This document shows, piece by piece, positions 13,492-54,289 of a stretch of DNA of 54,289 nucleotides. This DNA comes from a virus (taxonomy: Duplodnaviria; Caudoviricetes), in IMG/VR virus record IMGVR_UViG_3300027917_000056, positions 1 to 54,289 of that record; one strand, written 5' to 3'. The number at the start of each line of letters is the position of its first letter. The first letter of the stretch is position 1. The notes beneath the pieces were generated by a model that was given only the letters and a program-made list of their open reading frames with translations, was not told where the DNA came from and searched no databases. A program made the translations under genes and the position numbers.

Positions 13492-16400
13492 TCAGTTCTC
13501 TGGATCTATAACCATTTCCTCATGTATGTCTGGATCTATGGCCATCTCCGAATGTATATCCACCTCAATATCCACCCTTTGAGCCATCCAGCTAATTGAA
13601 CTCGTGCAGCTAGAGCTTGACTTCGAGCACTCGCTAGAACTCGACCAACTGGACTCGCATGACAGACTCGAAAAACTGGACCAAGAACTTGCACAGGACA
13701 GGCATGAGGAGGATGGGCTAGAGATGGACGACAGGCTGCTCAGAGAACTGGTACAGGAGAGGCTTGAAAAACTGGATGCGGAGCACATGGACTCCGAAGA
13801 CCAGGACGAGAGGGACGAGAGCGAGGAGAGGGACGAGGCACAGGAGAGGCTCGACCAGCTAGACTCAGAGCACACCGACTCCGAGGACTGGGAACTTTCG
13901 CAAGAGAGGCTCGAAAGGCTTGACTCGGAGCATACGCTCTCCGATGACCGGGAACTTTCGCAGGATAGACTGGAAAGGCTAGAGTGGGACGACTCGGAGC
14001 AGATACTTTCCGAGGACTGGGAACTCAGGCTGCTATGGGAGGAAAGGCTGGAGTGGCTTGACTCGGAGCAAACCGACTCAGAAGAGAGGCTGGAGGCACA
14101 ACTCAGGGACGACAGGCTTGACTCAGAACACACGGATTCTGAGGACCAGGAGGACAGACAACTGAACGATGAAAGGCTGGAAGGTGAAGATTTGCTCTCC
14201 TGGCTAGATGAACTAAAACTCGACTCACAAGACCAGCTCGACTCAGAGCATACACTCTCGGATGAGAGGGAAGAACGGGAACTGGCGCAGCTATGGCTTG
14301 ACAGTGAAGATTCAGAGCAGATTGATTCTGAAGATAGTGAACTCTGGCAACTCAGCGAGCTATAACTCGACTCCGAGCATACCGACTCGGATGAAAGGCT
14401 GGACAGGCTGGACGTACAGGATAGACTGGACAGGCTCGACTCGGAACATACGGACTCTGAGGACCAGGAGCTCGCACAACTCAGAGATGAGAGGCTGGAA
14501 AATGAGGATTCCGAGCAAATTGATTCGGACGATATTGAGCTGGGGCTACTCAGGGACGAGGGGCTGGAGAAGGACGAGGTACAGCTCTGCGAGGACAAAC
14601 TTGATAGCGAGGACTCCGAGCATACCGATTCTGAAGACCAGGAACTCAGGCACGAGAGACTTGAAAGCGAAGATTCCGAGCATATCGACTCCGATGACCA
14701 GGAAGAAATGCAGCTCAGGCTCGACAAGCTGGAAGGTGAAGATTTGCTCTCCTGACTGGAGGAGCTAAAACTCGACTCACAAGATAGACTAGACTCGGAA
14801 CATATACTCTCCGAAGAGAAGGACGAGACACAGGATAGACTTGACCAACTGGACTCGGAGCACACCGACTCCGAGGACCAAGAACTCAGGCAACTTGTGG
14901 ATGAGAGACTCGACAAACTGGATTCGGAGCATACCGATTCCGAGGACAGCGAAGAATGGGAGGATAGACTTGAAAAACTCGATGTAGAGCACACCGACTC
15001 TGAGGACAGCGAAGAACGGGAGCTGATGCAGCTATAGCTTGATAACGAAGATTCCGAGCAGACAGACTCCGAACTCCAAGAACTTGCACATGAGAGGCTT
15101 GACAGTGATGACTCAGAGCAAATCGATTCGGAAGAATACGAAGATAGCGATGAAATGCAGCTAAAACTTGACAACGAAGATTCCGAGCAGACAGACTCTG
15201 AAGATTCAGAAGAAGTGCATGACAGGGACGAATAACTGGACGCCGAGCAGACCGACTCCGAGGACTGCGAGCTGGTACAACTTAACGAGGACAGACTGGA
15301 CGTGGAGGAGGCTGACTCAACAGATTCCGAAGACCAAGAGGAAATGCAAGAGGCACTGGAGGTGCTGGATTCGGATGAGGTTGAAGATTCCGAAGAGTAG
15401 GAAGAGGTGGAACTTACCGAGGAGGTTGAGCTGTAGGATTCCCAATCGCAAACATCTACCAGAACATTGTCGAAGTACGCCGTATAGCCTTTGGTATCAC
15501 CAAACCAGTCGTGGGAACCAAGGTCTATAGCCTTAAAATTCTCACTGTGTGTACCGCCAAGGGTTCCTTCTGAAGTAATTGGGTATTCAGTGTCTACATT
15601 GTTTATTTGATCGACATTGTTTATTCGCCATGCCCACTCATTTGTTGAAGATAACCACTTCACTTGAATTACATAACGCTTATCCTCAACAACTGTTACA
15701 TTTGTATCCCTGTTATCCCTGACGGTCTTACTCTGGGAGTAGTCCCATACCCTGAAGATGACCTTGCTTCCATCATGCCAAATGACAAGACCCCAGAGAT
15801 ACCCCCCAGCATTGTCCGTTATAAGGCCGACGGTTGCTTGATCCCCACTGATAAATTCTGACAGATCAGTAAAAATCACCTCAAAACTATAATAGAAATC
15901 GGCTAAGTCAAATTGCCCAGTATTAAAAGCATTGGTTAATTCATTATCAGGAGCAATTATCTTTAGACATTCACTACCCCACCCAGGCGGACTGCCCACA
16001 TCTGCTGGATCAGCATTCTCGTCAATCGTTCCTGTTGTTAGGTTTTCCAACCAACCCGATTCATCGTACCCAGGAGTGCTTGTGTATTCGAATCGTTCTG
16101 TGAAAGTATCACACTGCAAGGAGCTGGAAGACTCGGACGACTGGCAGGAGACCGATGACTCGGAAGAATAGGACGAGGTACAGGAGGTCGAGGAGGTCGA
16201 GGAATAGGAGGAGACACAAGAGTAAGAGGAGGTCGAGCAGACAGACTCCGAAGAAGCCGATGAGGTACAACTCAACGAGGAGTAACTTGACTCCGAGCAT
16301 ACACTCTCCGAGGAACGGGAGGAAACGCAAGACAAGGACGAGAGGCTGGAAAGTGAAGAAGCCGAGCACAGGCTTTCGGAAGACCAGGACGAGAGACAAC

Positions 16401-18435
16401 TCAAACTCGATGGACTGGATTCGGAACAAACTGACTCGGATGACAGTGACGAGAATGACGAGGCACTACTATGAGATGACAGGCTAGAGGTTGAACAAAC
16501 TGACTCGGACGATAGTGACGAGAGACTGGAGAAACACGACCCTGAACTTTCTGAGCTTAGGCTACTCCAACTGGATTCCGAGCAGATAGATTCTGACGAC
16601 TCAGATGAGATGCACGAAAAACTGGAAAGACTGGACTGGCTGGATACACTGAGAATTGATTCGGGCCACCATACAATACTCTCCCGGTCCCTCCAAATGA
16701 TGCTCTCCCGATCTCTCCATACAATGCTCTCAGCAATGGCACCACTATACGATGAATAACTTGACAAGCTGGAAGTTGAGCATACACTCTCCGAGGACAT
16801 GGAACTTTGACACGAGGGGCTGGAGAGACTCGATTCCGAACAGACACTCTCCGAGGATGCGGAGGATAGGCTACTTAAGGATGATGGGCTAGATTCAGAG
16901 CACACACTCTCAGAAGAATATGAGGATAGGGAACTGAGACTGGACAGGCTAGACCAGCTCGACTCAGAACACACGCTCTCGGATGACTCGGAAGAATGGG
17001 ACGAGGTACAGCTCAGAGATGATAGGCTAGATTCTGAGCAGATCGATTCTGATGAGAGTGAGCTCTCGCAACTCAGGGATGACAGGCTGGAAACCGAGCA
17101 CACAGACTCTGAAGATTGGCTCGAACCTGAGGAAATCGACGATGTGCATGACATACTGGACGCTGACGAATACGAAGAGAACTCCACCGTAACGTCATCA
17201 ATAACCGTGGTTTCATTCCCCAGAGCCAGTGCAATCCACTTGCGCTCCGTTGCGCTTGCGGTTGTATAGTTGAGTGTCCATCCATCAGAATCCATGCTGA
17301 CAAAATCAGCGGCATGTATAAGAGTGCCATCGTTCTCATGCAAATATACGGCTCTATTTTCACAGCCAGATTGTGTATCACTAGTGTCCTGATCGTCTTC
17401 GTCTGCAATAGCGTGGCAATATTCACCTCCGTAATGGTCAAAGACGGATATACCAAAAACTCCAGAATATACACCAGTGGCTAAATAGTCGTATGCAGTT
17501 AGAGACGCAAGACCCTGCATCACGAAGATAGGCTTAAAACCAACACCAGTTTGTGAGTCGTCACCAGTGGAAGTTGGCGGCTGTGTTTGTAAGACCTTCT
17601 TATAATCAGAGCCAATGTCTAAGGCAAGATAGAACACATACTGAGATGCAGAATCACCTCCCCTTGTGTATATATCGAATCCATTTGAATTAAAGTTATC
17701 GAGTTCTGCGGTATACGGAGAAGCATCATTAAAAGTCTGATCGTAAATTCTGCCAGGACTGGTTGTGGCTCTTGTGTTGTTTATCGTGGTGTCTTCTGCG
17801 TCCTTTGCGCTGTGCTGCAAGACCATTTGTGAATCAGAGCCGTCATCCACTGCAAAGGCAAGGCCTAGAGTGGCATTAGCTATATATCCGGGTGTATCCA
17901 CTGCCGGATATAGTATGTTACCACAGATAACGACATCTGGTCTGAACCCAACATTAACAGATACATAGCTGTCTTGTGTAGCATGTATAGCTATGTTACC
18001 GACTGCTACGTTATTCAAACCACTAAAGAATACAGCAGTTACCAACGTACCAGCTACATAAGTAGCGTGGGTCGCATCCCAACTAATTCTCACGCCGTCG
18101 GTAATACCGGAATCATAACTCGCAGCGGCCTTCCATTGCCCAGTGCCATCACTGATGGATATACAAGAACTATCTATCGATTGCCGGTAAGTATCACTTG
18201 TACCTTGACCATGCTCTGCATCGATAGTCAAAGACCACTCATTGCTGCCCATGTCCGTGACGCCATAGCCTATGCTGGCATGATCTACCGTACCGTCAGC
18301 GGTAAGCGTATCCTTACCCCAAATAAACAAGACAGCATCAGGAGTGCCAAAACCAGAGATCGTGACATCCTGGGTTCCAGTGGCACCCCCACCCTTATTT
18401 GTAGCAAACCGGGTTATTTTGACATCAATGGCCAT
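13492..18435 (-). CDS. giant Ser/Cys-rich repeat protein (1647 aa), putative virion fibre/adhesin
   Basis: Triplicated N-terminal beta domain; Ser-rich tract (~17180-16120); ConA-like central domain (FTERFE...YFDNV); second tract (~15440-13590). Confidence 0.8.
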   Translation of the reverse strand: MAIDVKITRFATNKGGGATGTQDVTISGFGTPDAVLFIWGKDTLTADGTVDHASIGYGVTDMGSNEWSLTIDAEHGQGTSDTYRQSIDSSCISISDGTGQWKAAASYDSGITDGVRISWDATHATYVAGTLVTAVFFSGLNNVAVGNIAIHATQDSYVSVNVGFRPDVVICGNILYPAVDTPGYIANATLGLAFAVDDGSDSQMVLQHSAKDAEDTTINNTRATTSPGRIYDQTFNDASPYTAELDNFNSNGFDIYTRGGDSASQYVFYLALDIGSDYKKVLQTQPPTSTGDDSQTGVGFKPIFVMQGLASLTAYDYLATGVYSGVFGISVFDHYGGEYCHAIADEDDQDTSDTQSGCENRAVYLHENDGTLIHAADFVSMDSDGWTLNYTTASATERKWIALALGNETTVIDDVTVEFSSYSSASSMSCTSSISSGSSQSSESVCSVSSLSSLSCESSLSSESICSESSLSSLSCTSSHSSESSESVCSESSWSSLSSLSSLSSYSSESVCSESSPSSLSSLSSASSESVCSESSLSSPSCQSSMSSESVCSTSSLSSYSSYSGAIAESIVWRDRESIIWRDRESIVWWPESILSVSSQSSLSSFSCISSESSESICSESSWSSLSSESSGSCFSSLSSLSSESVCSTSSLSSHSSASSFSSLSSESVCSESSPSSLSCLSSWSSESLCSASSLSSLSSLSCVSSRSSESVCSESSYSSLSCTSSASSESVCSTSSYSCVSSYSSTSSTSCTSSYSSESSVSCQSSESSSSLQCDTFTERFEYTSTPGYDESGWLENLTTGTIDENADPADVGSPPGWGSECLKIIAPDNELTNAFNTGQFDLADFYYSFEVIFTDLSEFISGDQATVGLITDNAGGYLWGLVIWHDGSKVIFRVWDYSQSKTVRDNRDTNVTVVEDKRYVIQVKWLSSTNEWAWRINNVDQINNVDTEYPITSEGTLGGTHSENFKAIDLGSHDWFGDTKGYTAYFDNVLVDVCDWESYSSTSSVSSTSSYSSESSTSSESSTSSASCISSWSSESVESASSTSSLSSLSCTSSQSSESVCSASSYSSLSCTSSESSESVCSESSLSSFSCISSLSSYSSESICSESSLSSLSCASSWSSESVCSESSLSSYSCISSRSSLSSESVCSTSSFSSLSSHSSLSSESVCSESSLSSLSSTSCLSSWSSESVCSESSWSSLSCVSSFSSESICSESSLSCESSFSSSSQESKSSPSSLSSLSCISSWSSESICSESSLSSLSCLSSWSSESVCSESSLSSLSSQSCTSSFSSPSSLSSPSSISSESICSESSFSSLSSLSCASSWSSESVCSESSLSSLSCTSSLSSLSSESVCSESSYSSLSCQSSLSSESICSESSLSSHSCASSRSSLSSESVCSESSWSCESSFSSSSQESKSSPSSLSSFSCLSSWSSESVCSESSLSSLSCASSLSSESVCSESSHSSLSSHSSLSSQSSESICSESSHSSLSSLSCESSRSSESVCSESSLSSLSCESSQSSESVCSESSWSSLSCASSLSSLSSLSSWSSESMCSASSFSSLSCTSSLSSLSSISSPSSSCLSCASSWSSFSSLSCESSWSSSSECSKSSSSCTSSISWMAQRVDIEVDIHSEMAIDPDIHEEMVIDPEN
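13590..15440 (-). repeat. coding tandem repeat with a 17/20/23-aa unit, e.g. SSLSSLSCASSWSSESVCSE
   Basis: SSES(V/I)CSE recurs throughout; DNA copies are synonymously diverged. Confidence 0.95.
16120..17180 (-). repeat. first Ser/Cys-rich repeat tract of the 1647-aa protein
   Basis: Same unit, interrupted by three ESI(V/I)W copies (16660-16735). Confidence 0.9.
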
Positions 18436-18740
18436 TAAATCCCCAGCCTTGTTTTGAATGCAGTTTTAGTTGTATATTTGGCTCCATGTGCAGCCATGAG
18501 CATTACGGCATCGAACTCCAAGGCAAACTGTATCTTGTCGGCCTTCGTTCCCAATGCGTCAATGGCATCACAAAGCGCATTAAGATCAGCCTGTGCCTCC
18601 GTATCCAAAGACCAATAGGCTATGATCTGAGCCCGTGTGGTCTGTCCGGCCATGTAGTCTATAATGGCGGCGGCGAACGCATGAACAGCAATATTGGGCT
18701 CCATATCCTCTGGGAAAAGCCTGTCGAACAAGTCAGCCAT
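18435..18740 (-). CDS. hypothetical 101-aa protein coupled to the giant Ser-rich gene
   Basis: GGAGGG RBS; TAATG overlap with the next start. Confidence 0.8.
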   Translation of the reverse strand: MADLFDRLFPEDMEPNIAVHAFAAAIIDYMAGQTTRAQIIAYWSLDTEAQADLNALCDAIDALGTKADKIQFALEFDAVMLMAAHGAKYTTKTAFKTRLGI

Positions 18741-18757
18741 AACTCAATCCCTCCTTC

Positions 18758-19885
18758 TTACTTGACCAGACGTATCTTTATAAATCCGGTACTTGTGAAC
18801 TTTGTTCCGTACTCATGCCAAGTGTCAGCCTCACAGTTTGCTGCCGTAGTGCCAGTTTTGTAGTAGATCGTCGGAGTTGGACCACTTCCACCACCACCAT
18901 ATTTATCAAGGCTGACTACTACCACACCAGAGCCCAAATACCATGTCTCAGATATTCCCTCATCTGAAACTACCAACAGAGAAAGAGTCTCTCCGTCCCC
19001 AGAGCCACTAACCACTCCGTCACCCGTCCAATGATCTGAAAAGGTTCTCTTGTGGTCCTCTGCTACTGCCGTACTATGACCCCAGCAGACTGTACCGATT
19101 ATCTGAGAAGAATATGAGGACCAAGACGAAAGGCAACTCAGACTAGACAGGCTGGACTCCGAACACACGGACTCCGAAGATTGGGAGGAAAGGCTAGAGG
19201 TACTGCTCAGGGACGATAGGCTCGACTCGGAGCAGACGGACTCGGAAGATTGGGATGAGGTACTGCTCAGGGACGATAGGCTAGATTCTGAGCATACGCT
19301 CTCGGAAGAGAGGGACGAATATGAAGACGTACTCGAAAAACTTGACTCGGACGACAGAGAGGATAGGGAGGACAGGGACGACAGGGACGATAAGGACGAC
19401 AGCGAGGACTCGGAACTCTCCTCCAAAGTACCGACTGTGCGAACGTCCCATATGCGAATATCTACAGGATCGGCAGGACCGATTAGGTCAAAAGTAATTC
19501 TTACTTGTAGTTGGGAAAGATCCTGACTTGCTGAGAGGGTTTCTGTTACGGTTTCTGCGGTTGTGGCACGGTTGGCGGAATCGTTTGAGTAATTTCCTTG
19601 CGGAGTGTTAGTAATTTTGTTCCATGCACCACCGCCATTTGTAGAAAACTCAATACACCACTTGTCGTTACCAGTTCCAACATCCGTGGACCACTTGACA
19701 TACAAGGTAAGGGCTGAGTATGAGGCGGAGGCCGCAGCCCAGTTGTAAAAGCGTATAGCAGGAGTATAGTCGTTATCAATATTGTCATAGCCATAATCCG
19801 CGTCATTAGCATTGTAACACTGCGTCGGATTGGTCCACCCGCTACTGTCCGCATGACTCTGTGGTCTTCTGATTTCGTCGGCCAA
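18758..19885 (-). CDS. Ser/Cys-rich repeat protein with two beta-rich domains joined by the same repeat
   Basis: Tract 19105-19420 (SSESVCSESSLSSL) with 60-bp DNA periodicity; TTG start with GAGGGAG RBS. Confidence 0.8.
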   Translation of the reverse strand: MADEIRRPQSHADSSGWTNPTQCYNANDADYGYDNIDNDYTPAIRFYNWAAASASYSALTLYVKWSTDVGTGNDKWCIEFSTNGGGAWNKITNTPQGNYSNDSANRATTAETVTETLSASQDLSQLQVRITFDLIGPADPVDIRIWDVRTVGTLEESSESSLSSLSSLSSLSSLSSLSSESSFSSTSSYSSLSSESVCSESSLSSLSSTSSQSSESVCSESSLSSLSSTSSLSSQSSESVCSESSLSSLSCLSSWSSYSSQIIGTVCWGHSTAVAEDHKRTFSDHWTGDGVVSGSGDGETLSLLVVSDEGISETWYLGSGVVVVSLDKYGGGGSGPTPTIYYKTGTTAANCEADTWHEYGTKFTSTGFIKIRLVK

Positions 19886-21506: not shown

Positions 21507-21509
21507 ATT

Positions 21510-22253: not shown

Positions 22254-22273
22254 GTGTCCATCCTCCTCATTTT

Positions 22274-23440: not shown

Positions 23441-23594
23441 TGCTCTCAAATCTCCATTTGATGTTTGGATTGTCTTGCCATACTGCCGGCTGATCGTCAT
23501 ACATGATTTTCTCTGATATGCTGCATATGCCCAAAAAAGCAATGATCCCGGCAATGACTCCACCAAAGATAACTAATACGATCTTATTGATCAT
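23418..23594 (-). CDS. 58-aa single-TM membrane protein (not in the ORF track)
   Basis: MINKIVLVIFGGVIAGIIAFLGICSISEK...; ATGA-coupled to the upstream GT gene. Confidence 0.55.
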   Translation of the reverse strand: MINKIVLVIFGGVIAGIIAFLGICSISEKIMYDDQPAVWQDNPNIKWRFESNEKTMDE

Positions 23595-24430
23595 ATACTT
23601 GCACCCTCCCTGTTGTCTGATATAGGGTGATTCTCCGGCTTGTACCCGCCCTTTGTAGCCCGTCCCTCCTGGATAGCTTGCTCAAGTTCACGCATCTTTT
23701 TTGGGTTTCGTGGCAACTTGTGGAACAGCCTTTTTTTGTCTTCCTTCGCATGGGGAAAGGCATACATCAGTGGACCTACCCGATGCCGTTCTATTGGCTT
23801 TGAATCTCCACGGTCGATCTGCTCCCTTCTTAGATTTCCATAACGCATATGAAAATCCGAGTCTCCACCGTATTGCCCGTAATATTTAGTCTGATACCCG
23901 CCGAGTTCCAAGTAGATCCACCGACGAATGAGATAGATGTCTTGCACTCCGAAATACTTCTCCTCTTCTCCTGGATAGGCTCCATATTCGTATAGGATCT
24001 CGGGCTCCCTCCTGAGTTGGCCCTCCGCATCCAACACGGCGTACTTACGTGGGAAGTGCATCTTGTCTCCGTCATAAACCACAGCAGCTTCGAATACCTC
24101 TTTAGGCATGATATGATCGATAGCAGTCATGAGCACATATTCTGATTCTGCTCTTTCAACTCCTAAATTCATGGCTAATTGCTGTGTCCAACAGATATTT
24201 GATCCTGTAGGAATGACCCGAAAATTAAAATGTATCTTATCTTTCATGGCCCAGAACAGCTTATGTAATGGAGGCATGGAGTTGTCATCTACCACATGAA
24301 TCATAACTTGTTCCCGTAGTTTATCATCTAACTCAAATATAGAAGACCAAAACAAAATCTGTCTTCTTAAAACTTCATGAGAATCCAGTGTTGGTACTAT
24401 CATCGTGACTTTAGGCTGCGGCACGTCCAT
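23591..24430 (-). CDS. GT-A glycosyltransferase (GT2/GT7-like), paralog 2
   Basis: VTMIVP, VVDDNS, AMNLGVERAE and YLELGGY...GGDSDF motifs. Confidence 0.8.
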   Translation of the reverse strand: MDVPQPKVTMIVPTLDSHEVLRRQILFWSSIFELDDKLREQVMIHVVDDNSMPPLHKLFWAMKDKIHFNFRVIPTGSNICWTQQLAMNLGVERAESEYVLMTAIDHIMPKEVFEAAVVYDGDKMHFPRKYAVLDAEGQLRREPEILYEYGAYPGEEEKYFGVQDIYLIRRWIYLELGGYQTKYYGQYGGDSDFHMRYGNLRREQIDRGDSKPIERHRVGPLMYAFPHAKEDKKRLFHKLPRNPKKMRELEQAIQEGRATKGGYKPENHPISDNREGASI

Positions 24431-33623: not shown

Positions 33624-33639
33624 TTACTTTTTCGTGTCT

Positions 33640-34673: not shown

Positions 34674-34676
34674 AAA

Positions 34677-34997: not shown

Positions 34998-35000
34998 ATC

Positions 35001-35273: not shown

Positions 35274-35293
35274 TACTATTTCCCTCCTCTTCT

Positions 35294-42618: not shown

Positions 42619-42624
42619 CCACCG

Positions 42625-43722: not shown

Positions 43723-43727
43723 CTTGA

Positions 43728-44072: not shown

Positions 44073-44078
44073 CTCTCT

Positions 44079-47000: not shown

Positions 47001-47930
47001 TTTCATAATACTGAGAGCAGCTTCATCCGCAGTCCGGATTGTTAATGTCATCGCCGAACCAATCAGATCAGCCCATTTCTGAGCAGATCCAGTTTCAAAA
47101 CTCTTCTCCATAGCTTCTGCATGTCTGCCAAGTATTCTCTCCGTCTCCTCCAGCACCCCTCCCTGAGTGCCAATCTGACGGACAAACTCTTTCGTATAGT
47201 TTTTTATAGTTTCTGTAAGTCCACCGTAAGTGCTTTGTATTTTTTGTGAGAACCCACCGTATCTTTCTTTCAATCCTTCCAGTACGGCAGCTATGACTTT
47301 TTGGGCATCCAGATGGAGTTTACCTACATCCGCTAATTGAGCAGCAGTAAGACCCATTTTCTCCTGTAAAATTTCAAATACTGGGACACCTGCCATTCGG
47401 AGTTGATCCATCTCTTGAGCCATCAATCGTCCCTTGGCCTGTATTTGTCCCAATGCCCTAGCAACCCTATCCATTCCATCAGCCTGTAGCCCGAGGGCTA
47501 GTACGGTATCGACCAGAGTGGTCATATCATCAATGGTGGGCTTCAAGCCCATGGCCCGGAGCATCTTGAAGGAATCAATGGCTTGTTCCGTATTGATTGG
47601 CATTTTCAGGGCCCATTTATTCAACTCTTCAAACCAATTCGTACCTTCACCCTTCGTCAGCATGTCTAAGGAATCCCGCATTCGCTCGAATCGGTCTGCG
47701 GTCTCTACCACACTCTTGCCGAGAGCAACAATAGAACCAACTCCCACGGCAGCAGCTAGGCCCATAAGTTGAGTTCGCACTCCCATGATCCCACCCTGCC
47801 ACCGAAGCATACTCCGATGATTGTCTTCTACCTGACCCCGGAGATTATTGAAATTTCTCTCCACACGACCCAGAGCAGCCGAGCTTTGATCTCGAACTAT
47901 GATAGGTATGTTCAATCTTCTTTCAGCCAT
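44079..47930 (-). CDS. tape measure protein
   Basis: 1283 aa helical; N-terminal ALGQIQAKGRLMAQEM domain; C-terminal FHEGG...EVPAILQKGE. Confidence 0.93.
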   Translation of the reverse strand: MAERRLNIPIIVRDQSSAALGRVERNFNNLRGQVEDNHRSMLRWQGGIMGVRTQLMGLAAAVGVGSIVALGKSVVETADRFERMRDSLDMLTKGEGTNWFEELNKWALKMPINTEQAIDSFKMLRAMGLKPTIDDMTTLVDTVLALGLQADGMDRVARALGQIQAKGRLMAQEMDQLRMAGVPVFEILQEKMGLTAAQLADVGKLHLDAQKVIAAVLEGLKERYGGFSQKIQSTYGGLTETIKNYTKEFVRQIGTQGGVLEETERILGRHAEAMEKSFETGSAQKWADLIGSAMTLTIRTADEAALSIMKVVRSVFGVGEALADLITLVENIPERTRRATGRVTEEAESETSKFIQRIKEAFPELVRAMTVEKTAVTWDLLANAIRATESVTGKLVDNVPAWIQAFGDWSREVILTSDDAFSTFIRSATGVTEELKKQELKAINHARFLRELRARERAEGPYRMARGGPPEEPVGPPRELFEEAQAKEIAEIKAAERKAILEEMEKLRKDMDELTGKTVIEQLAYWTKYEQDKLAILQRHGLAEQEAVTLSVYVQEEKAELLDKALKDQKVSYEQFMDFRAGVTEDLKRLTQSETQFELNEIQRRSEERERDLEEWVRKAKEESEEIRKIITSAYGGGAGREAERFVVAIETIERITREMEGATEERKTVLQTELDSAKSVYSEIAEKYIESEDKKLAASFKGLEQRTRIVASEGQVQKQSFQASLAEMARFQERLSDTIQGKQREYQQEINRIVMDQFEYQRWAAEKAYEERLGWIEKEREAQEAIKQESLGYLDSVIWSNEEVTAELIAQNQKRYDDAVEKLRELGAQEKASAELRKALLFEIADTEREANLLKQRHTLEYLEWHLEQLAIQGASIRELEEARIDWMIDNNENFFEGMRLGFKKVEWEWSHWGRRGAEVSQHLANSISNSMSQAFSNIIMGTEGVNEAFARMGEAVIRTILDIIAQLLVEWMIIQMIKGVGSLLGAFGGSGGGDVMGMGQGIPTIGGTGTLNLGKTPIPLPSIGGGGPYFHEGGIVEGGPVTPVQHFHQGAMVSGAVRVMPDEVPAILQKGEAVIPRESARRNRDLVNYLINPWKKIRDARDAVAEIRTVRSQAQAGYGSMTRDIFEKGRAADELVRVVAAPTIKEDYRPVDAMSGSSAFDLSTGYKHEGAEQEAKVGKISRLLQPEIGGAFGGMGNVSMASLGAMMAAQQGPIGGERRKEDAGEPAQVTVNLINQTGTQFRARAGETRYDGKKQIQDVILESLFTNPEFRQSARKGLGVR

Positions 47931-47936
47931 GTACGG

Positions 47937-48320
47937 CTACCTCTTTGCTAAAACTTTCGCTTGTGGATTCACCGTTCTGGTAATTCCTTTTTGTCCGGGC
48001 TGCTTGTTGAACTGACTCGTTCGATAGGACAGAAGATAATAAAACACCCCTGTAAACAAACGCTCGTAATCTTCTTCCTCAACACCCGAGGCCCGGATTG
48101 TAAGATCAATGGCATTAAAGTCTATTTGTCCGGTCATTCCGTTTATAGCTCCCGGTAGGGCTTTTCTAGCCAATCCATATGTCAAAAGATTTTCCCCCAT
48201 TACACGAGGTCGCTTGCACTTGTCACAGGGGGGTTCTTTGCCTTTCCTCGTGTAGATTTGGTCGCAGTTGGAGCACTGGAGCTTTGTGCGGTCTCCTTCC
48301 CATTCTGCGACCTCAACAAG
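47937..48320 (-). CDS. tail chaperone -1 frameshift extension (gpT-like)
   Basis: The -1 frame is open from the slippery site to 47937: LVEVAEWEG...CSNC...CDKC...MGENLL. Confidence 0.8.
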   Translation of the reverse strand, partial: LVEVAEWEGDRTKLQCSNCDQIYTRKGKEPPCDKCKRPRVMGENLLTYGLARKALPGAINGMTGQIDFNAIDLTIRASGVEEEDYERLFTGVFYYLLSYRTSQFNKQPGQKGITRTVNPQAKVLAKR

Positions 48321-48628
48321 TTTTTTACCTGTTCCAGTTTGGAAGCCATCAACTCATTTATCTGTATGATTAGTTCCTGCCGGAGTGCATACTCGTACCG
48401 AAAAAGGTAGAGCTTGTTTTCTTCATTGCACTCAAACACTTCCCCGGTATCCAGATCCTCAATCCCTTCCCAACTCTCCACACAGTACATAAACATGGTC
48501 TTCTCTACATCGATAGGGTTCACGGCTCCTCGGTCATATTTAATTTCATCATATGGAAAAGGTCTTAAGTGGAACTTTGCGTCCCCAATTTCGATCTCCT
48601 TGCCTACTAGCTTTTTGCTGATCTTCAT
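48200..48628 (-). CDS. tail assembly chaperone (gpG-like)
   Basis: Between the tube and tape measure genes; CVESWEGIED motif. Confidence 0.85.
   Translation of the reverse strand: MKISKKLVGKEIEIGDAKFHLRPFPYDEIKYDRGAVNPIDVEKTMFMYCVESWEGIEDLDTGEVFECNEENKLYLFRYEYALRQELIIQINELMASKLEQVKNLLRSQNGKETAQSSSAPTATKSTRGKAKNPPVTSASDLV
48320..48326 (-). other. -1 ribosomal frameshift slippery heptamer A AAA AAC
   Basis: In-frame CAG GTA AAA AAC in gpG. Confidence 0.8.
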
Positions 48629-48643
48629 TGTCTTCTCCCTCCT

Positions 48644-48670
48644 CTAAGAAGGGGGACCCAAAGGTCCCCC
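48644..48670 (-). terminator. intrinsic terminator-like hairpin after the major tail gene
   Basis: GGGGGACC-TTTG-GGTCCCCC followed by TTCTT. Confidence 0.7.
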
Positions 48671-48678
48671 CCAAAGTT

Positions 48679-49095
48679 TTAGCTTGACTCGACGTAGTAC
48701 ATCTGGTCATGTCCAACCATTGTCATAGAAACCCGCACTACGTCATCATTGCCTGGGTTGTTAAGAGAAACGGCTGTAATAACGGCACTTCCGTAGAAGT
48801 AGCCATCGGTCGTTCCCTCATCAACCTCAAAACGCACGTCAGCGACAACACCATCCGTACCATCTGCAAAAACTTCGTCGATCAATCCCCTCTGTCCGTT
48901 CGTGTCTCCCATATCGACGAATCCATTGATAGTACCATTCCAACCCCTGGACCCCTGAACAGTCTGCTTCCACTCGTTACCAATGCAAGTAACGTCGATT
49001 GCAGTGCCCTCAAGATTCAAGGTATAGTCCGTGAGATTGATGACAGTGTTCGCACCGACAGCGCACACGCCCAACTTACCACGAAAGAACGCCAT
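48679..49095 (-). CDS. major tail tube protein
   Basis: DVTCIG.EWK...G.RGW.GTI.G and YFYGSAVIT patterns; canonical position. Confidence 0.85.
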   Translation of the reverse strand: MAFFRGKLGVCAVGANTVINLTDYTLNLEGTAIDVTCIGNEWKQTVQGSRGWNGTINGFVDMGDTNGQRGLIDEVFADGTDGVVADVRFEVDEGTTDGYFYGSAVITAVSLNNPGNDDVVRVSMTMVGHDQMYYVESS

Positions 49096-49122
49096 CGTGA
49101 GAACCTCCCTTATATCCGATTA

Positions 49123-49572
49123 TCAAGTCAGCGTAATCGGATATTTGCCGGTGAAAGTAAGTAAACACCCGCCAAACTCGTCTTGGCTCACTGCCTCGCA
49201 TGGCCTCAACTGAAAAGCGATTACCCCTTCTCCGAGAGAGGAATCCGCCCGAATTGCCCTCTCTATGTCGCTCCCTAATTCCATGGCTCTTTTCAGGGCG
49301 TCATCTTCACTCTTGACGTAACCGTGGATCTCGATTTCGAACTCCACCATATAGTTAGCGTCAACAGTGACCTGCTCGACATCCCAAGAGACTGTAGGAA
49401 CGCAAACGAACGGGTACACGCTTTGCTCGTTGATAGCACGAGCTCCCAAGACGATCTGATTGTGTTTGAGCCGATTGTTGTAGCCCGTTGAACCGTCAAT
49501 ACGGTTCCGGAGTTGATCAATCAGCGCATCCACAACATCTTTCATTCTGTTATAAGTGGTAGTGTCTGCCAT
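49123..49572 (-). CDS. tail terminator/completion protein
   Basis: Position; YP.V.V...EIEIHGYV...DIERAI pattern. Confidence 0.7.
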   Translation of the reverse strand: MADTTTYNRMKDVVDALIDQLRNRIDGSTGYNNRLKHNQIVLGARAINEQSVYPFVCVPTVSWDVEQVTVDANYMVEFEIEIHGYVKSEDDALKRAMELGSDIERAIRADSSLGEGVIAFQLRPCEAVSQDEFGGCLLTFTGKYPITLT

Positions 49573-49597
49573 GTGTTTTCGTCCTGTGTTTATGGGG

Positions 49598-49703
49598 CAA
49601 ACAAAAAGGGCAGACTATGCGAAGGTGCGGCTCCGCACTGCCTGCCCTTTTCTGTTTCTTGCGTCCCCTTCAAGATTGGCCGATCTCTAAAGGGGAACCC
49701 CTT
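49598..49703 (-). promoter_or_regulatory. structured intergenic RNA element (terminator/attenuator-like)
   Basis: Outer stem 49604-49613/49642-49651 encloses hairpin 49625-49638 and is followed by a U-run on the coding strand; second stem with alternative pairing at 49664-49703. Confidence 0.55.
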
Positions 49704-49709
49704 ATGTAA

Positions 49710-50339
49710 TTATCTCTTTAAGTCATCCACAATCTTACCCCCATAATACTCGATTATCTTTTCCATTTTTGGTCTCATCTTCTCAAAAGACGGAGTAAGC
49801 CACGGCTTGGGGCTCATCTTTACTTTCCGGGCAAAAATCACATGACCTGTAGCTTCCCCGTGCTTTACAGCCCGCCTAAGTCGGTATCCACCAGTACCGA
49901 GTATATCCACACCTCGACGTGTCTTCTGGAATTTCCACCGGGACCGAAACACGAGGAATTTCCTCGGTGGTTTCGGATATACCATATGACCTGGAGTTTG
50001 AGCACCCCACTCCAACACCCGCCCATAGAACCCAGGACCTTTTCTTGTTTGTGCCTCAATAAGACCTCGAACCCCAACGACCCCAAACTCTGCTTTGTAT
50101 ACCTTGTCTTCTCCCGTACCCTCCACCCTCACCTCTGAAGCCCGTACTGAACTAGCTAACTTACCCGTACCTCTAAAAAGCGGATTTCCACCCGTAAGAT
50201 GTTTTTGAGTCTCTGTATCTAAAATCATCATTGCCTCTTTCATTCCTCGTACTACGTCCTTGATTCGACCCTTACGGGTTTTTCGCACGTCCATTATGAA
50301 CGCATCCACTTCTCGCCATTTTATTTCCACTTCGGCCAT
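49710..50339 (-). CDS. HK97 gp10-like neck/tail completion protein
   Basis: TGKLASSV, YGRVLEWG and PKPWLTPSF motifs. Confidence 0.8.
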   Translation of the reverse strand: MAEVEIKWREVDAFIMDVRKTRKGRIKDVVRGMKEAMMILDTETQKHLTGGNPLFRGTGKLASSVRASEVRVEGTGEDKVYKAEFGVVGVRGLIEAQTRKGPGFYGRVLEWGAQTPGHMVYPKPPRKFLVFRSRWKFQKTRRGVDILGTGGYRLRRAVKHGEATGHVIFARKVKMSPKPWLTPSFEKMRPKMEKIIEYYGGKIVDDLKR

Positions 50340-50340
50340 A

Positions 50341-50925
50341 CTAACGGGAGTCCCTTTCTATGAGCATAGCAAAATCTGGTAATAGGTTATCTTTCAAGTT
50401 CTTGTATGAAATAGTGCCCATCCCTTGAGGTTGTGCCACAGAGGCTTTATCCCATTTGTGATCCTTGGCCTGTTCGAACCAGTGAGCCGCTTGCCTTACC
50501 ATTATTTGCTTAGACCCCGAAGGAATAGCACTGGCCCCTGTCTCTGTGTACCCAGCCGTATAGGACACCTTTATGGACTGATTGCCGACATGAAAATAGG
50601 AGTTGTAATATATAACTCCGTGTACATAATCCACCCGGTAGTCCTCTGCCGGAACTAGGTGATCACTGGTCCACTGCCAGTCCGGATCGTCCCACATCTG
50701 TACTGCTGGAGTGGTGGCTACAGGATAACCCCTAAGAATTACCACGCTCTGGTCCTCATAAGCGTTGTAATATTCCGTAAGTGCCGCCTGCTCTACTACG
50801 GTCTTGCCAGTAAGTTCCTTGTACAACCCTTCTACCCCAACAGTAACAGCCTCAATCAGATCGTTGTTCTCAGCGTCCTTTATGCCGAGTTCCAGTTTTA
50901 CGTCCTCTTTAGTGATCAGGGCCAC
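50341..50925 (-). CDS. head-tail connector (gp6/gp15-like)
   Basis: LITKEDVKLELGI...IKVSYTAGY...AAHWF pattern. Confidence 0.85.
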   Translation of the reverse strand: MALITKEDVKLELGIKDAENNDLIEAVTVGVEGLYKELTGKTVVEQAALTEYYNAYEDQSVVILRGYPVATTPAVQMWDDPDWQWTSDHLVPAEDYRVDYVHGVIYYNSYFHVGNQSIKVSYTAGYTETGASAIPSGSKQIMVRQAAHWFEQAKDHKWDKASVAQPQGMGTISYKNLKDNLLPDFAMLIERDSR

Positions 50926-51949
50926 AACCTTTCCTCCTGTCTATTTCATATTTCATTAAATCGACAAGCCTCTGAGCCGACTCTTCCCAAGTAAAATACT
51001 TAGCAATTCTCTCATGGGCCTTCCGTCCCCGAGCTAGGGCTTCGTCATAATGTTTAGGAACATAATCCACCCACCCGGCTAGGTCCCCAACCTCGGGCAT
51101 TCCAAGCCTGGACCACGCCCGAACGTGCCGACCATCAGACCGGGGAAAAGTGAACTCAGCATTTCCAATAAAATAACCCAATGGGTAGCCAACCTCCTCA
51201 TCAAAATAATCGAGCATCCCCCCATAGTGAGTAGCCACACATGGCAATCCTGTTCTCATAGCCTCGGCTAGGGTGAGTCCAAAACCTTCCCCCCGGCTAG
51301 GGAACAGAAAACAATGGGCAGAATGATAAATCTCCACCATGTCCTCAGTGGGCACGTCCCGAGAGTCCACTATAAGATTTTTGCCAAACGTTACCTTGTG
51401 GTCGTACTGAAGACCACGGGCTCCGGCAGTTTTCAGATACAACTCCACGTCACTCCGGTCTCTCATCTTCATCCGATCCCACACCCACATAATCTCCTCA
51501 TACCCCTTCCGCTTGTTAGGAGCCCCAACCCACAGGAAACGGAATCGCTCCCCCGAGGGCGGGAGGCACCGAAGTTTGTAGGAGAATACTGGGTCCACAC
51601 CATGATGCACTACGTGCAAAGGTTTATATGGCAGCTTCTTCTTAAACACCCCTCCAGCCCATGTAGAAGGGGTGAGGAGATAGTCGGCCTTCTCGGCCTT
51701 CCACCGATAGATGTCCGGCAAATCCAGCCCCTCGAACATGGTAAAGAGCCAGTTGAATTTATCTGGCACAGGATCGAACCTCTCCGCACTCACAATAGTC
51801 AAGGCATCCTCTGCGTCTGGGTCCAGAGTGGCAATCTTGGCCACCTCAGCCCGAAGATTCTCGTTATGGGTATAGTACCCATACACGTTAGGTCCGTACA
51901 TCATATTCTTCGGCTTCTCGGACTTGGTTGCCCAGTGAATCCGAGTCAT
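50909..51949 (-). CDS. GT4 (GT-B) glycosyltransferase, paralog 2
   Basis: FLWVGAPNKRKG and FPSRGEGFGLTLAEAM motifs. Confidence 0.92.
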   Translation of the reverse strand: MTRIHWATKSEKPKNMMYGPNVYGYYTHNENLRAEVAKIATLDPDAEDALTIVSAERFDPVPDKFNWLFTMFEGLDLPDIYRWKAEKADYLLTPSTWAGGVFKKKLPYKPLHVVHHGVDPVFSYKLRCLPPSGERFRFLWVGAPNKRKGYEEIMWVWDRMKMRDRSDVELYLKTAGARGLQYDHKVTFGKNLIVDSRDVPTEDMVEIYHSAHCFLFPSRGEGFGLTLAEAMRTGLPCVATHYGGMLDYFDEEVGYPLGYFIGNAEFTFPRSDGRHVRAWSRLGMPEVGDLAGWVDYVPKHYDEALARGRKAHERIAKYFTWEESAQRLVDLMKYEIDRRKGCGPDH

Positions 51950-52946
51950 GGCTTTCCCTCCTCTTCAGCCATTGGGTTTTAAGTGTACTGACCAGCGATT
52001 CTGCCGACCTCTCCCAAGTAAATTCATCTCGAATTCTTTGATGTGCCTTCCGGCCTTTCTCCAGAGCTTCATCATAATGAACAACTACATAAGACATCCA
52101 CTTAGCCATCACTCCAGGGTCGGGAAAGCTAATGTCGGTATCCCACCACCCGAGATCGTCCCGTCCGATAAACCGCACTCTGGATTTCTTTATTTCATGA
52201 GGAATTACATAGCCAACCTCCTCATCGAAGAAGTCGGCCACTCCGGTATAGCTAGGAGATATGCAGGGCAGACCCGTCCTCATGGCCTCGGCGAGAGTCA
52301 ACCCAAATCCTTCCCCCCGGGTAGGAAACAAAAAGGCGTGGCTTCGGTGATATAGGTTTAGAAGGGCTGCCCTGCTTATATTAGATCCGTTTACTATCAC
52401 ATTACCCATTTGTTTTACACCTGGATGCCGAGTGGTTTTGATATACAACCTAGCGTTCCTGAGTGTTTCGAATCCCGCATGTTTCCATGCTGCTATTACT
52501 TCCTGAAATCCCTTTCTTGGGTTGGGAGCACCCACCCACAAGAACTGAAACTTGCCCTTAGGCATCTTTCTTTTCTTGTAAGTAAAAAACGGCTCCACAC
52601 CATGAGGCACCACGAATATCTTCTCCTCATCGAAATACTTAGCGAACAACTTCTTCACCCACGTAGAAGGAGCCAGAAGGAAATCTGCCTTTTCCATGTT
52701 CTCCAGGTAGAACTCAGGAACCTCTTCACCCTCAAACATAGTAAAGAGCCAGTTGACCTTCTCTGGCACTGGCCGAAAATTCTCCGCTGGTATAATGTGG
52801 ATAGCATCTTCATACTCATCCCCTATTGGGCAAATCTGCTTTGTGTACTTTACTAGGGTGTTGTTGTGTACCATGTATCCATAAGCATTTCCAATGCCGT
52901 CCTGATACATTGCCGTGGCCCAACACAGTCCGAACTCCTCTATCAT
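51888..52946 (-). CDS. GT4 (GT-B) glycosyltransferase, paralog 1
   Basis: FLWVGAPNPRKG and FPTRGEGFGLTLAEAM motifs; start MIEEFG at 52946. Confidence 0.92.
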   Translation of the reverse strand: MIEEFGLCWATAMYQDGIGNAYGYMVHNNTLVKYTKQICPIGDEYEDAIHIIPAENFRPVPEKVNWLFTMFEGEEVPEFYLENMEKADFLLAPSTWVKKLFAKYFDEEKIFVVPHGVEPFFTYKKRKMPKGKFQFLWVGAPNPRKGFQEVIAAWKHAGFETLRNARLYIKTTRHPGVKQMGNVIVNGSNISRAALLNLYHRSHAFLFPTRGEGFGLTLAEAMRTGLPCISPSYTGVADFFDEEVGYVIPHEIKKSRVRFIGRDDLGWWDTDISFPDPGVMAKWMSYVVVHYDEALEKGRKAHQRIRDEFTWERSAESLVSTLKTQWLKRRESHDSDSLGNQVREAEEYDVRT

Positions 52947-53569
52947 GATTTCCTCAGTATAAATTGGTGTGTGTCTATCTCTCCCCCAGACCATCCCTGC
53001 TTATCCACTAGGTACTCGTCCACTGCTTGTTTGGCTCCACGACATTGCGGAAATCCATAATCATCACAAATAATCACTCCTCCTGAACTCATTCTCGGGA
53101 AGAAAAAAGAGAAGCAATCAAGAGTAGACTGATAAATGTCTACGTCCACATGAACAAAGCAATAATTCTGATAAGGTAGTCTATCTGCACAATATGGAAA
53201 CATCCCCTTGATTAAAGCCACGTTCGGTCGATTTTCCTGAAACCATTTCTTTATATCCTCAAATTGAGCAACATCCGAAAAGTCTCCTTCCTCGTGTTCG
53301 TCCAGACCTTTTATCGGTTGTGGCATTCCATCAAAGGTGTCAATCCCAAACACAGGCCGATCATCGAAAATGGCAGAAATATGATTCAGGGAACCACCAA
53401 AGTACACACCTATTTCCACTACACCACCTGGAACTATATAACCACGAACTCTTTTGGCTTCCCGTTTGATAACGTCCAAACGCACATGATCAATAGCCGT
53501 ATAAATGCCCGGGAGCTTAGTCTCAAGCTGCGACTGCTTGTTTTGGGTAGTGTTTGGCATCTGCATCAT
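52943..53569 (-). CDS. TylF/MycF-like sugar O-methyltransferase
   Basis: EIGVYFGGS, DTFDGMP, HVDVDIYQST and DDYG motifs. Confidence 0.88.
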   Translation of the reverse strand: MMQMPNTTQNKQSQLETKLPGIYTAIDHVRLDVIKREAKRVRGYIVPGGVVEIGVYFGGSLNHISAIFDDRPVFGIDTFDGMPQPIKGLDEHEEGDFSDVAQFEDIKKWFQENRPNVALIKGMFPYCADRLPYQNYCFVHVDVDIYQSTLDCFSFFFPRMSSGGVIICDDYGFPQCRGAKQAVDEYLVDKQGWSGGEIDTHQFILRKS

Positions 53570-54074
53570 TTATAATCTCCTTACGGAAATTAAAGCCCGT
53601 GACTGCCTCTAACTGTTTCAAGGCCCTTTCAGGAGCTATAAACATGAGACTCGAATCGATGATTATAAAGTCTGGTCTGTGTTCTACTAAAAACCTAAAT
53701 ATATGTGTGAGTTGTGGCACTACCCGACATTCCGCATCTTCCCTTTTATTCTGATGTCCCTGATGCACCTTGGAACGTGCCATAGCTGCCCATTCTCTAA
53801 ACATGACAATCCAAAATGTTTGGCATCCACATTCCCGAAATCTAGTATCTATCCTTGATAGATCAGGCATATGTCCTGCATGAGGCACACTACGGCGGAA
53901 CACAAATCTGGATTCCTCACTATGCTTACTCAAGTCTGCCTTTCCCTTTAGTACCTGATCCAACGGCTGATTATGACTTGCCTGTCCAATACATCCGGCT
54001 TCTATCAACAAACGAGTCATTAATCTTGTGCCGGAAGATTCTGGTCCAACTACCAGATACGCTTTTTTCGTCAT
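53523..54074 (-). CDS. sulfotransferase-family (P-loop) protein
   Basis: VVGPESSGTRLM (5'-PSB-like) and a later R....ARS motif. Confidence 0.6.
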   Translation of the reverse strand: MTKKAYLVVGPESSGTRLMTRLLIEAGCIGQASHNQPLDQVLKGKADLSKHSEESRFVFRRSVPHAGHMPDLSRIDTRFRECGCQTFWIVMFREWAAMARSKVHQGHQNKREDAECRVVPQLTHIFRFLVEHRPDFIIIDSSLMFIAPERALKQLEAVTGFNFRKEIINDADAKHYPKQAVAA

Positions 54075-54289
54075 CTTCTGCGTACCTTCTCTTTCAATTT
54101 TCGAAACACCACCTCGAACGAGTACACAGCCACCGGACTCTCAGAATGAATGCAAAGTAATCCGTCCAAATGTTTGTCGATAAAAGCGCAGAAGTTGTCT
54201 AGGGACAGGTCTGGATTCTTATGTTCTACGTTATAAGCCTGTCCTGTATCCGCACAGTACTGACGGTAGATCTGCTCATCTGGCAGAAG
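54071..54289 (-). CDS. C-terminal part of a probable SAM methyltransferase (start lies outside the window)
   Basis: Open frame LLPDEQIYRQYC...NVEHKNPD...YSFEVVFRK ending in an ATGA overlap. Confidence 0.5.
   Translation of the reverse strand, partial: LLPDEQIYRQYCADTGQAYNVEHKNPDLSLDNFCAFIDKHLDGLLCIHSESPVAVYSFEVVFRKLKEKVRRR

Follow-up and report, generated by a model that had tools for sequence, protein, structure and literature searches.

Serine tracts and a GT9-like/GT4 fusion enzyme in a tailed phage: a candidate system for protein O-glycosylation

Why would a phage carry three late genes for proteins with serine tracts up to hundreds of residues long, together with two blocks of putative glycan enzymes? 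This question is raised by the IMG/VR virus record IMGVR_UViG_3300027917_000056 (Duplodnaviria; Caudoviricetes), which we analyzed in its entirety as one window of 54,289 bases (65% complete by CheckV). Nearly every gene of the window lies on the minus strand, as do all window features given below with coordinates unless stated otherwise. An initial annotation had proposed that the Ser tracts are acceptors for dense O-glycans built by co-encoded enzymes. Our analysis leads to a related proposal, to which we assign about an even chance of being correct: phage enzymes act in the cytoplasm of the host to O-glycosylate Ser tracts on tail-associated proteins. The evidence comes from the tracts, from an 867-residue enzyme that joins a GT9-like and a GT4 glycosyltransferase (GT) domain, and from the co-occurrence of relatives of this enzyme with poly-Ser proteins on other contigs.

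The Ser-rich proteins are A (1647 residues, 36% Ser; 13492..18435), B (375 residues; 18758..19885), and C (926 residues; 39838..42618). We defined Ser tracts using 30-residue windows with at least 40% Ser. By this measure the tracts of the three proteins together span about 1,450-1,500 residues, consistent with the more than 1,300 Ser-dominated residues first counted in three minus-strand open reading frames (ORFs), whose coordinates and translations also agree with ours. Protein A contains tracts A1 (residues 409-576, 51% Ser; 16708..17211), A2 (residues 582-784, 52% Ser; 16084..16692), and A3 (residues 988-1627, 55% Ser, 50 Cys; 13555..15474). The tract of B covers residues 144-273 (19067-19456), while C has a long tract (residues 167-480; 41179-42120) and a short one (residues about 673-729; 40432-40602). 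In A and B the tracts are built from a unit of 20 or 23 residues, SES[VI]CSESS-xSS-LSC-xSS-xS, which places a Cys every 10 or 13 residues. Tract A3 holds 21 copies of SES[VIML]CS[ETA]SS at a spacing of 20 or 23 residues. The tract of C is looser and is rich in Ser, Cys, and Pro.

The tracts draw on all six Ser codons, the longest pure TCN or AGY run is at most 8 codons, and Tandem Repeats Finder returned only short and weak DNA repeats. The use of six codons and the weakness of the DNA repeats indicate that the tracts are maintained by protein-level selection and do not represent a microsatellite. The Ser frame is genuine, since the same frame runs through globular domains that have relatives or paralogues. 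Competing frames were rejected as low-complexity by-products, namely a 733-residue ORF in another minus-strand frame over protein C (40092-42293) and several plus-strand ORFs of 110-250 residues overlapping protein A. Spurious Ser tracts arose in other loci by the same effect. Three IVWRDRES-like motifs break up the Ser tracts of A (about 16693-16707 and flanks; residues about 575-605). The C-terminus of A carries a duplicated acidic motif, EMAIDPDIHEEMVIDPEN, and Tandem Repeats Finder detects this duplication as well, at 13499-13557. Peptides of the sequence SESVCSESSLSSLSC would be candidate acceptors for the GT9-like domain.

The 867-residue fusion enzyme (30467..33070) was delineated by profile and family comparisons. 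It consists of a GT9-like GT-B domain (residues about 100-335; 32066-32773), a four-Cys knuckle identified in the family alignment (C340, C356, C364, and C387; 31910-32053), and a GT4 domain (residues roughly 450-820, with a Pfam match at 691-795; about 30611-31723). Homologues with 37-52% identity were found on 12 IMG/VR contigs, the conserved part being the N-terminal 430 residues. PF01075 matched 5 of 11 close homologues (best E 1.6e-6) and is also carried by distant stand-alone relatives; on the window's own enzyme it scored E 1.9e-4, below the cut-off. The GT9-like assignment made initially is borne out by PF01075 and by heptosyltransferase models within the family. GT9 enzymes are best known for heptosylation of the lipopolysaccharide (LPS) core.

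The four knuckle cysteines are invariant or nearly so among members of the enzyme family, and we know of no such four-Cys motif in WaaC or WaaF. When the PDB was searched with the broader 25-member family profile, the only glycosyltransferases matched were WaaF and TibC; profile searches with the close-homologue alignments gave no GT9 or TibC match. The TibC match is weak (4RB4 and 4RAP, E 0.24 and 0.36), yet it covers 170 residues (219-388) and is the only long PDB alignment. In the E 0.24 alignment, the four conserved cysteines align with Cys339, 342, 358, and 370 of TibC. According to the structural report, these residues bind the ferric ion of an "iron finger" inserted into the catalytic domain, and TibC heptosylates serines, but not threonines, of TibA and AIDA-I (PMC4358343). 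From the alignment, the knuckle is suggestive of a signature shared with the TibC/AAH family and does not prove membership.

Most homologues carry a class-I S-adenosylmethionine (SAM) methyltransferase domain between the GT9-like and GT4 domains (profile positions about 400-530). The window enzyme has no such insertion, and a separate Methyltransf_23 gene (33057..33623; Pfam) lies immediately upstream. This difference reflects gene fission or fusion. On a 159-kb contig (L011; G009 107140-110507) the enzyme gene is seemingly split or duplicated, with a 747-residue GT9-like plus GT4 ORF followed by a 339-residue GT4 ORF.

Relatives of this enzyme are found with poly-Ser proteins. On 7 of the 12 IMG/VR contigs, a same-strand ORF with a Ser tract of at least 120 residues lies within 10 kb of the enzyme gene. 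Tracts of 197-573 residues occur elsewhere on the contig in three of four further cases, giving 10 of 12 overall; the two tract-less contigs are fragments of 7.8 and 14 kb. In a genome collection, two of the four close enzyme matches have tracts (134 and 499 residues). A metagenome scan returned at least 227 enzyme relatives, from which 80 loci were kept, most of them short, and tracts of at least 80 residues were present in 5 of the 16 loci with at least 9 kb downstream. As controls we used loci chosen via the helicase of the window. Tracts were scored in 0 of 13 loci of a first set and 1 of 80 loci of a second set spanning 861 kb, or 1 of 93 in total, and the sole example (L177) proved to be an alternative frame of a DNA tandem repeat. 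Five whole control contigs contained neither enzyme nor tracts.

After merging near-identical loci, tracts were present in 11 of 76 groups. When only groups represented by a locus of 12 kb or longer were counted, tracts were found in 8 of 22 compared to 1 of 38 controls (Fisher p = 9e-4), and the viral set alone gave a Fisher p of 3e-7. The association between the enzyme and poly-Ser proteins is real but partial, and its size depends on the extent of genome visible. In eight metagenome loci, apparent minus-strand Ser tracts upstream of the enzyme gene were discarded as antisense artefacts. Four of these (L068, L079, L102, and L103) were translated, with the overlapping plus-strand gene read in L068 only; the remaining four share their position and strand and were discarded on that basis.

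The enzyme-bearing contigs range in guanine-cytosine (GC) content from 0.29 to 0.59 and have only the enzyme in common with the window, apart from sporadic matches to the C-terminus of B and a 183-residue ORF (L002), a radical-SAM enzyme (L012, L022, and L024), and a methyltransferase (L011). This spread in GC and the lack of other common genes indicate that they do not form one lineage. The tract-bearing proteins near the enzyme are likewise diverse, with discoidin-like, NHL-propeller, LamG-like, and other domains. A PHROG scan of ten such proteins from other loci placed one in tail-fibre families and one in a family of unknown function, with no match for eight. Their tracts are nearly pure poly-Ser; that of L012 has one Cys. 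Taken together, these data raise a wider hypothesis, which we hold tentatively and with slightly less than even confidence, of a widespread, as yet undescribed class of phage systems. In these, a TibC-like enzyme fused to GT4, and often to an O-methyltransferase, would hyperglycosylate poly-Ser tracts of tail or fibre proteins in the cytoplasm, giving methylated, acetylated, or sulfated brushes on many unrelated environmental phages.

Other genes recur beside the enzyme, including rhamnosyl-O-methyltransferase/CmcI-type genes (6 loci), Methyltransf_24 genes, and sugar-nucleotide epimerases or dehydratases (3 loci). The methyltransferase-type neighbors fit the methyltransferase-rich window. In 8 of 15 loci the enzyme has neighbors from a family of proteins of about 310-350 residues, in most cases a tandem pair of paralogues (L002 18012-19944, L005 17607-19617, L006 14838-16961, L008, L010, L012, L022, and L023). 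This family had no Pfam or PDB match and, by hhalign, no relative in the window; its motifs ILVTSH, AYDN, and NGDC..EKPEG may hint at an unclassified glycosyltransferase. In the genome collection, enzyme matches come from metagenome-assembled genomes with archaeal or "uncultured" labels. Three contigs there with both enzyme and phage-like poly-Ser proteins (L020, L021, and L022) carry the labels Promethearchaeota, Woesearchaeota, and Aenigmatarchaeota, and NCBI names of some enzyme relatives cite Heimdallarchaeaceae and Pacearchaeota. We do not trust such labels as a guide to the host. Low GC may have caused three viral contigs to be mis-binned, or these viruses may infect such hosts.

The proteins that bear the window's tracts are modular. 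Protein A comprises a 412-residue all-beta N-terminal domain (17200..18435), its three tracts, and a short acidic C-terminus; in the middle of the protein, about 200 residues (about 785-990) make up a further globular domain rich in beta structure. The AlphaFold2 model of the N-terminal domain is confident (predicted local distance difference test, pLDDT, 92.6); its three beta-sandwiches resemble a C1q/TNF trimer joined into a single chain. We propose that this domain is a virion-anchoring module. It had no Pfam or PHROG match, and at E<=1e-3 its family numbers 2546 representatives, most of which stand alone as proteins about 420 residues long. Among the 150 best relatives, only 2 have a Ser tract of at least 40 residues; others append Thr/Pro mucin-like repeats, Ser/Thr repeats, LamG-like or other modules, or nothing. 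It thus seems to serve widely as an anchor from which different modules are displayed, with the giant Ser tracts as a local elaboration.

Directly upstream of A lies a gene for a 101-residue protein (18435..18740), whose homologues stand beside A homologues in other loci (60-61% identity in L013, 9644-9949, and L015, 9671-9976; 32% in L017). This conserved partner may be a chaperone or adaptor for the A-type protein. In a 167-kb phage (L014 8495-11182), a homologue of the window's phrog_2448 gene (42625-43722) is found directly upstream of the A-type gene, which ties the A family to the tail module.

Protein B has globular N- and C-termini on either side of its tract. Its C-terminal domain has a counterpart, at 45% identity, at the C-terminal end of a poly-Ser protein from L002, the locus nearest to the window, which also carries the GT9-like/GT4 enzyme. 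The gene order there matches that of the window, with the enzyme block followed by the poly-Ser protein with the B-like C-terminus. Protein C begins with a tail-tube-like N-terminus, followed by the long tract, two beta-sandwich domains, and the short tract. Language-model neighbors of its first 170 residues include Phage_tail_2 (score 0.94), which we treat as a lead and not as a test. The two domains of about 200 residues after the long tract are paralogous (35% identity, E 4e-26), and their nearest neighbors are ConA-like or GH43_C2-type beta-sandwiches, again as a lead only.

The remaining pathway candidates flank the fusion enzyme or lie in the second block. In the first block (23591-33623), Pfam identified a radical-SAM/SPASM enzyme (26022..27083; Radical_SAM and SPASM) and two class-I SAM methyltransferases (Methyltransf_11 and Methyltransf_24; 27946..29324). 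These are followed by a sulfotransferase-like protein (29291..30019; Sulfotransfer_1, 24.2 bits against a cut-off of 22) and a hexapeptide-repeat acyltransferase similar to the NeuD/PglB/VioB sugar acetyltransferases (30007..30642; Pfam and NCBIfam). A weak GT2-like ORF (23591..24430) matched Glyco_tranf_2_2 (E 1.4e-4) and PF00535 (16.2 bits), both below cut-off. The second block (50909-54289) encodes two GT4 glycosyltransferases (50909..52994; Pfam), a TylF-type sugar O-methyltransferase (52943..53569; E 3.3e-21), and a 183-residue protein (53523..54074) with a P-loop-like GPESSGT motif at its start. The latter has no family match, and a 29%-identical homologue lies within the glycan cluster of L002.

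What we observe directly are the genes present, their domain architecture, the four conserved cysteines, and the statistical link between this enzyme and poly-Ser proteins; from these we infer every step of the following mechanism. The late operon of the phage would make its own glycoproteins. Three late proteins would offer long Ser tracts held between folded modules, C within the tail module and A and B further downstream. Before these proteins leave the cytoplasm of the host, their tract serines may be primed by the GT9-like part of the fusion enzyme, in the manner of TibC and AAH on autotransporter repeats, with a first sugar that is perhaps heptose from host ADP-heptose. Extension of the glycan could then fall to the GT4 part of the fusion, to the pair of GT4 enzymes in the second block, and to the weak GT2-like ORF, and the methyl-, acetyl-, and sulfotransferases could decorate it. 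The expected product is an extended, hydrophilic, protease-resistant stalk that would hold lectin-like domains off the tail or mask the particle.

Several observations weigh against this proposal. Its support consists of genes and sequence, and A and B are putative virion proteins. A gene for sugar-nucleotide synthesis was not recognized in the window. The initial figure of about 16 glycan enzymes stands as a count of ORFs in the two blocks, with family support for only 11 of them (8 of 11 in the first block and 3 of 5 in the second). The AlphaFold2 model of the fusion enzyme was poor (pLDDT 56, with residues 1-200 mostly below 50). Across the enzyme family, the NCBIfam LPS heptosyltransferase models TIGR02195 and TIGR02193 matched 18 (best E 6.2e-9) and 12, respectively, of the 25 members, while the Aah/TibC model TIGR04414 (hepto_Aah_TibC) matched 5 of 25 weakly (best E 1.2e-3). 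The N-terminal half of the window's enzyme had no match to TIGR04414 at E<=1; the window copy matches no LPS heptosyltransferase model either. The PDB match to WaaF was better than that to TibC (E 0.0019), but it spans 44 residues. The first block also lies between the lysis genes and the integrase, an interval that often houses host-surface conversion genes in temperate phages. In the metagenome, only 5 of the 80 loci had a same-strand tract of at least 100 residues (p = 0.10 alone). The co-occurrence test suggested in the initial annotation came out positive for the GT9-like enzyme (8 of 22 against 1 of 38), with a partial association.

Relatives of protein A give the reverse view. An IMG/VR scan with its N-terminal domain as a single query gave no match, and a 41-sequence alignment was too diverse for scanning; a smaller alignment yielded seven loci that encode relatives of the domain, two of which have Ser-rich tracts in those proteins. 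The GT9-like/GT4 enzyme was searched for in five of the seven contigs and found in none (0 of 5; positive control 5 of 5). A complete relative thus carries Ser/Thr tracts without this enzyme, and among whole tract-less controls, 2 of 5 have GT genes (GT2 only) and 3 of 5 have none. The complete tract-bearing relative encodes a 1039-residue GT2-GT2-GT4 protein and three more GT genes, and the second tract-bearing relative has a GT2 gene directly after the tract gene. Relatives that keep tracts but lack GTs, named at the outset as grounds for abandoning the idea, did not appear: GT genes were present on 6 of 6 whole tract-bearing contigs screened for GT families, a small sample.

These points bear on the main rival explanation, which we regard as unlikely, though to be taken seriously. 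Under this explanation, the tracts are unmodified, flexible, hydrophilic polyserine linkers between lectin-like modules, of the kind present in marine bacteria that degrade polysaccharides, and the enzymes act elsewhere, most likely on host LPS or capsule in lysogenic conversion or superinfection exclusion, with co-occurrence arising from shared ecology or hosts. Polyserine linkers are described between carbohydrate-binding modules of bacterial enzymes, and in Saccharophagus degradans more than one in four carbohydrate depolymerases has its modules separated by them (PMC2386152). The tracts would therefore make sense without a glycan. The tracts of A, B, and C do stand between globular domains, as such linkers do, and in the window they join lectin-like beta-sandwich domains. 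The strength of the LPS heptosyltransferase models, the position of the first block near the integrase, the weak metagenome association, and the rarity of Ser tracts in A-type proteins, which elsewhere use Thr/Pro or Ser/Thr linkers or none, all favor linkers. On the other hand, the four-Cys knuckle aligns with the iron finger of TibC, while the WaaF match is so short. The pairing of enzyme and tracts persists across contigs of widely differing GC and gene content, and the 93 control loci contain 0 genuine poly-Ser proteins. Both blocks also belong to the late operon, where the second adjoins the connector gene on one side and the absent head genes on the other.

The location of the second block, directly upstream of the connector gene and beside the expected position of the head genes, agrees as well with virion glycosylation on other acceptors, such as capsid or tail-tube termini, with the Ser tracts serving only as spacers. 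Glycans at capsid and tail-tube C-termini are reported for Mycobacterium phages (Freeman et al. 2023, cited in PMC12619734). We consider this improbable for the present phage; the capsid gene is absent from the contig, and modification of other acceptors leaves the tracking of the enzyme with poly-Ser proteins unexplained.

The radical-SAM/SPASM enzyme raises a further alternative. It has no specific NCBIfam equivalog, its best partial matches include peptide maturases, and its homologues recur in enzyme loci, adjoining the GT9-like/GT4 enzyme in L012 (6472-7410) and L022 (14950-15942) and a distant GT4-only relative in L024 (6435-7361). Peptide cross-linking is conceivable given the periodic Cys of the tracts, and a sugar-modifying role just as much so. 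The 20- or 23-residue Ser/Cys repeats could accordingly fold as a rod (a beta-solenoid or a polyproline-II-like bundle) braced by disulfides after release or by radical-SAM/SPASM thioethers, so that stiffness would come from the fold and not from glycans. The strict repeat unit, whose cysteines recur at intervals of 10 or 13 residues and whose hydrophobic residue keeps to fixed positions, agrees with such a fold, which would apply to this phage only. The near-pure poly-Ser tracts of other phages are incapable of it, and L012 pairs a radical-SAM gene with a tract that has one Cys. We judge this explanation very improbable.

Least probable of all, to the point that we give it little further weight, is that the GT enzymes act on the DNA of the phage. 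DNA glucosylation by phage GTs is well known (cited in PMC12619734). No hydroxymethylase or other base-hypermodification gene was recognized among the scanned ORFs of the window, however, and the sulfo-, acetyl-, and O-methyltransferases together with the GT9-like enzyme fit a glycan pathway whose genes lie in the late structural operon.

Returning to tract glycosylation, we compared the proposed system with known ones. TibC and AAH of E. coli (BAHT family; PDB 4RAP and 4RB4) have a GT9-related GT-B domain with a four-Cys knuckle near the end of the C-lobe, are encoded near a protein with many repeated serines, and act in the cytoplasm, as proposed for the phage. In contrast, the phage enzyme is fused to GT4 and in relatives also to a methyltransferase, its similarity to TibC is marginal (E 0.24), it does not match the curated Aah/TibC model, and it is encoded by a phage. 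BAHT enzymes also have an N-terminal beta-barrel and form a dodecameric ring; in the phage enzyme, residues 1-200 were modelled mostly at pLDDT below 50. The substrates also differ: TibC and AAH transfer heptose from ADP-heptose to serines of beta-helical autotransporter passengers, whereas the proposed phage substrates are low-complexity poly-Ser tracts, and no autotransporter was recognized among the scanned window ORFs.

The Fap1/GspB-type serine-rich repeat protein (SRRP) adhesins of Gram-positive cocci are glycosylated by GtfA (a GT4 enzyme with DUF1975) and GtfB, use an accessory Sec system with SecA2/SecY2, carry a cell-wall anchor, and rely on their repeats to present a binding domain at a distance. 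Very long Ser-rich repeats paired with nearby GT4-type enzymes are common to both. In the window, by contrast, the proteins are of phage origin, the priming candidate is GT9-like, and the repeat unit has 20 or 23 residues with two Cys. DUF1975 gave no match on the two GT4 ORFs, and general Pfam scans, which left some small ORFs unscanned and did not include sortase or anchor motifs, gave no SecA2/SecY2-like match. The mucin/SRRP analogy drawn initially accordingly found no SRRP-type machinery behind it in the family scans run. Mimivirus fibrils and chlorovirus capsids are glycosylated by virus-encoded machinery, and they resemble the present case in devoting a multi-enzyme viral glycan pathway to virion surface proteins. 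Those viruses infect eukaryotes, however, their enzymes and acceptors are unrelated, and poly-Ser tracts are not known from them.

To our knowledge, only a few actinobacteriophages are documented to have glycosylated proteins in their particles. The mycobacteriophages among them are, like this phage, tailed and carry GT genes thought to decorate their own structural proteins; their glycans are reported at capsid and tail-tube C-termini (cited in PMC12619734), whereas the acceptors proposed here belong to accessory tail proteins and run to hundreds of residues. The putative enzyme set of the window is much larger, including methyl-, acetyl-, and sulfotransferases. The polyserine linkers of Saccharophagus degradans and Cellvibrio japonicus similarly part carbohydrate-binding or lectin-like modules (PMC2386152); the phage tracts are far longer (up to 640 residues), have a defined Cys unit, and co-occur with dedicated enzymes. 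In agreement with the initial annotation, we found no described phage system that pairs poly-Ser acceptors with GTs in the full-text literature, a coverage that leaves out most subscription journals.

If tract glycosylation is correct, dedicated serine scaffolds would carry dense O-glycan coats in environmental phages from many lineages, made by an enzyme type otherwise known only from bacterial adhesin maturation. This would change the view of phage surfaces, adsorption, sediment aggregation, and recognition by hosts or grazers. It would also offer a compact cytoplasmic toolkit for protein glycosylation, and the enzyme together with poly-Ser ORFs would be a simple genomic marker for such phages. 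An older question, whether bacterial polyserine linkers are glycosylated, would become testable as well.

The gene order places this system in the context of a tailed phage. The contig represents a portion of a temperate siphovirus genome. Followed as it is transcribed, the window opens with the second enzyme block (50909-54289), which consists of a partial ORF, the 183-residue protein, the TylF-type O-methyltransferase, and the two GT4 genes. The tail/neck module follows (42625..50925; Pfam and PHROG), with connector, Neck1, terminator, major tail protein, chaperone, a 1283-residue tape measure, a minor tail protein, and the phrog_2448 protein. Protein C (39838-42618) comes next, ahead of two minor tail proteins and a J-like central tail fibre (35294-39841; PHROG), the latter at 35294..38614 (phrog_31, E 8e-53). 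PHROG matches across 35294-50925 thus appear in lambda-like siphovirus tail order, from connector to J. The lysis module is marked by a Peptidase_M15_4 endolysin (33848..34192; Pfam) with small ORFs nearby, and this endolysin marks a host with peptidoglycan.

Downstream of the lysis genes lies the 11-ORF enzyme block (23591-33623), then a group of two ORFs without assigned family and a beta-helix protein (20034-23566; Pfam). The latter is a right-handed beta-helix of the tailspike or depolymerase type (20034..21506; Beta_helix, E 8.4e-16). Ser-rich B, the 101-residue ORF, and Ser-rich A (13492-19885) follow the beta-helix gene, and a tyrosine integrase (10788..11882; phrog_1, E 1e-38) marks the phage as temperate. 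As the initial annotation had stated, the late genes share one strand, forming a tightly packed co-directional array that includes both enzyme blocks. By ORF coordinates, the biggest intergenic gaps from 54289 to 13492 are 137 and 148 nt, which fits a single long late operon. Promoter and terminator scans over 12000-51999 gave counts at or below the shuffled expectation and are uninformative on operon structure.

No terminase, portal, or capsid genes were found on the contig, and no tRNA genes. Megablast of 30000-54289 returned no close relative among cultured phages, and IMG/VR scans with the J protein or the first GT4 as query gave no match. The J-like matches in cultured phages reach only 23-27% identity. 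Beyond the late genes lies a replication module with a helicase, a DNA methyltransferase, a Cas4-like exonuclease, a replication initiator, and an HNH endonuclease.

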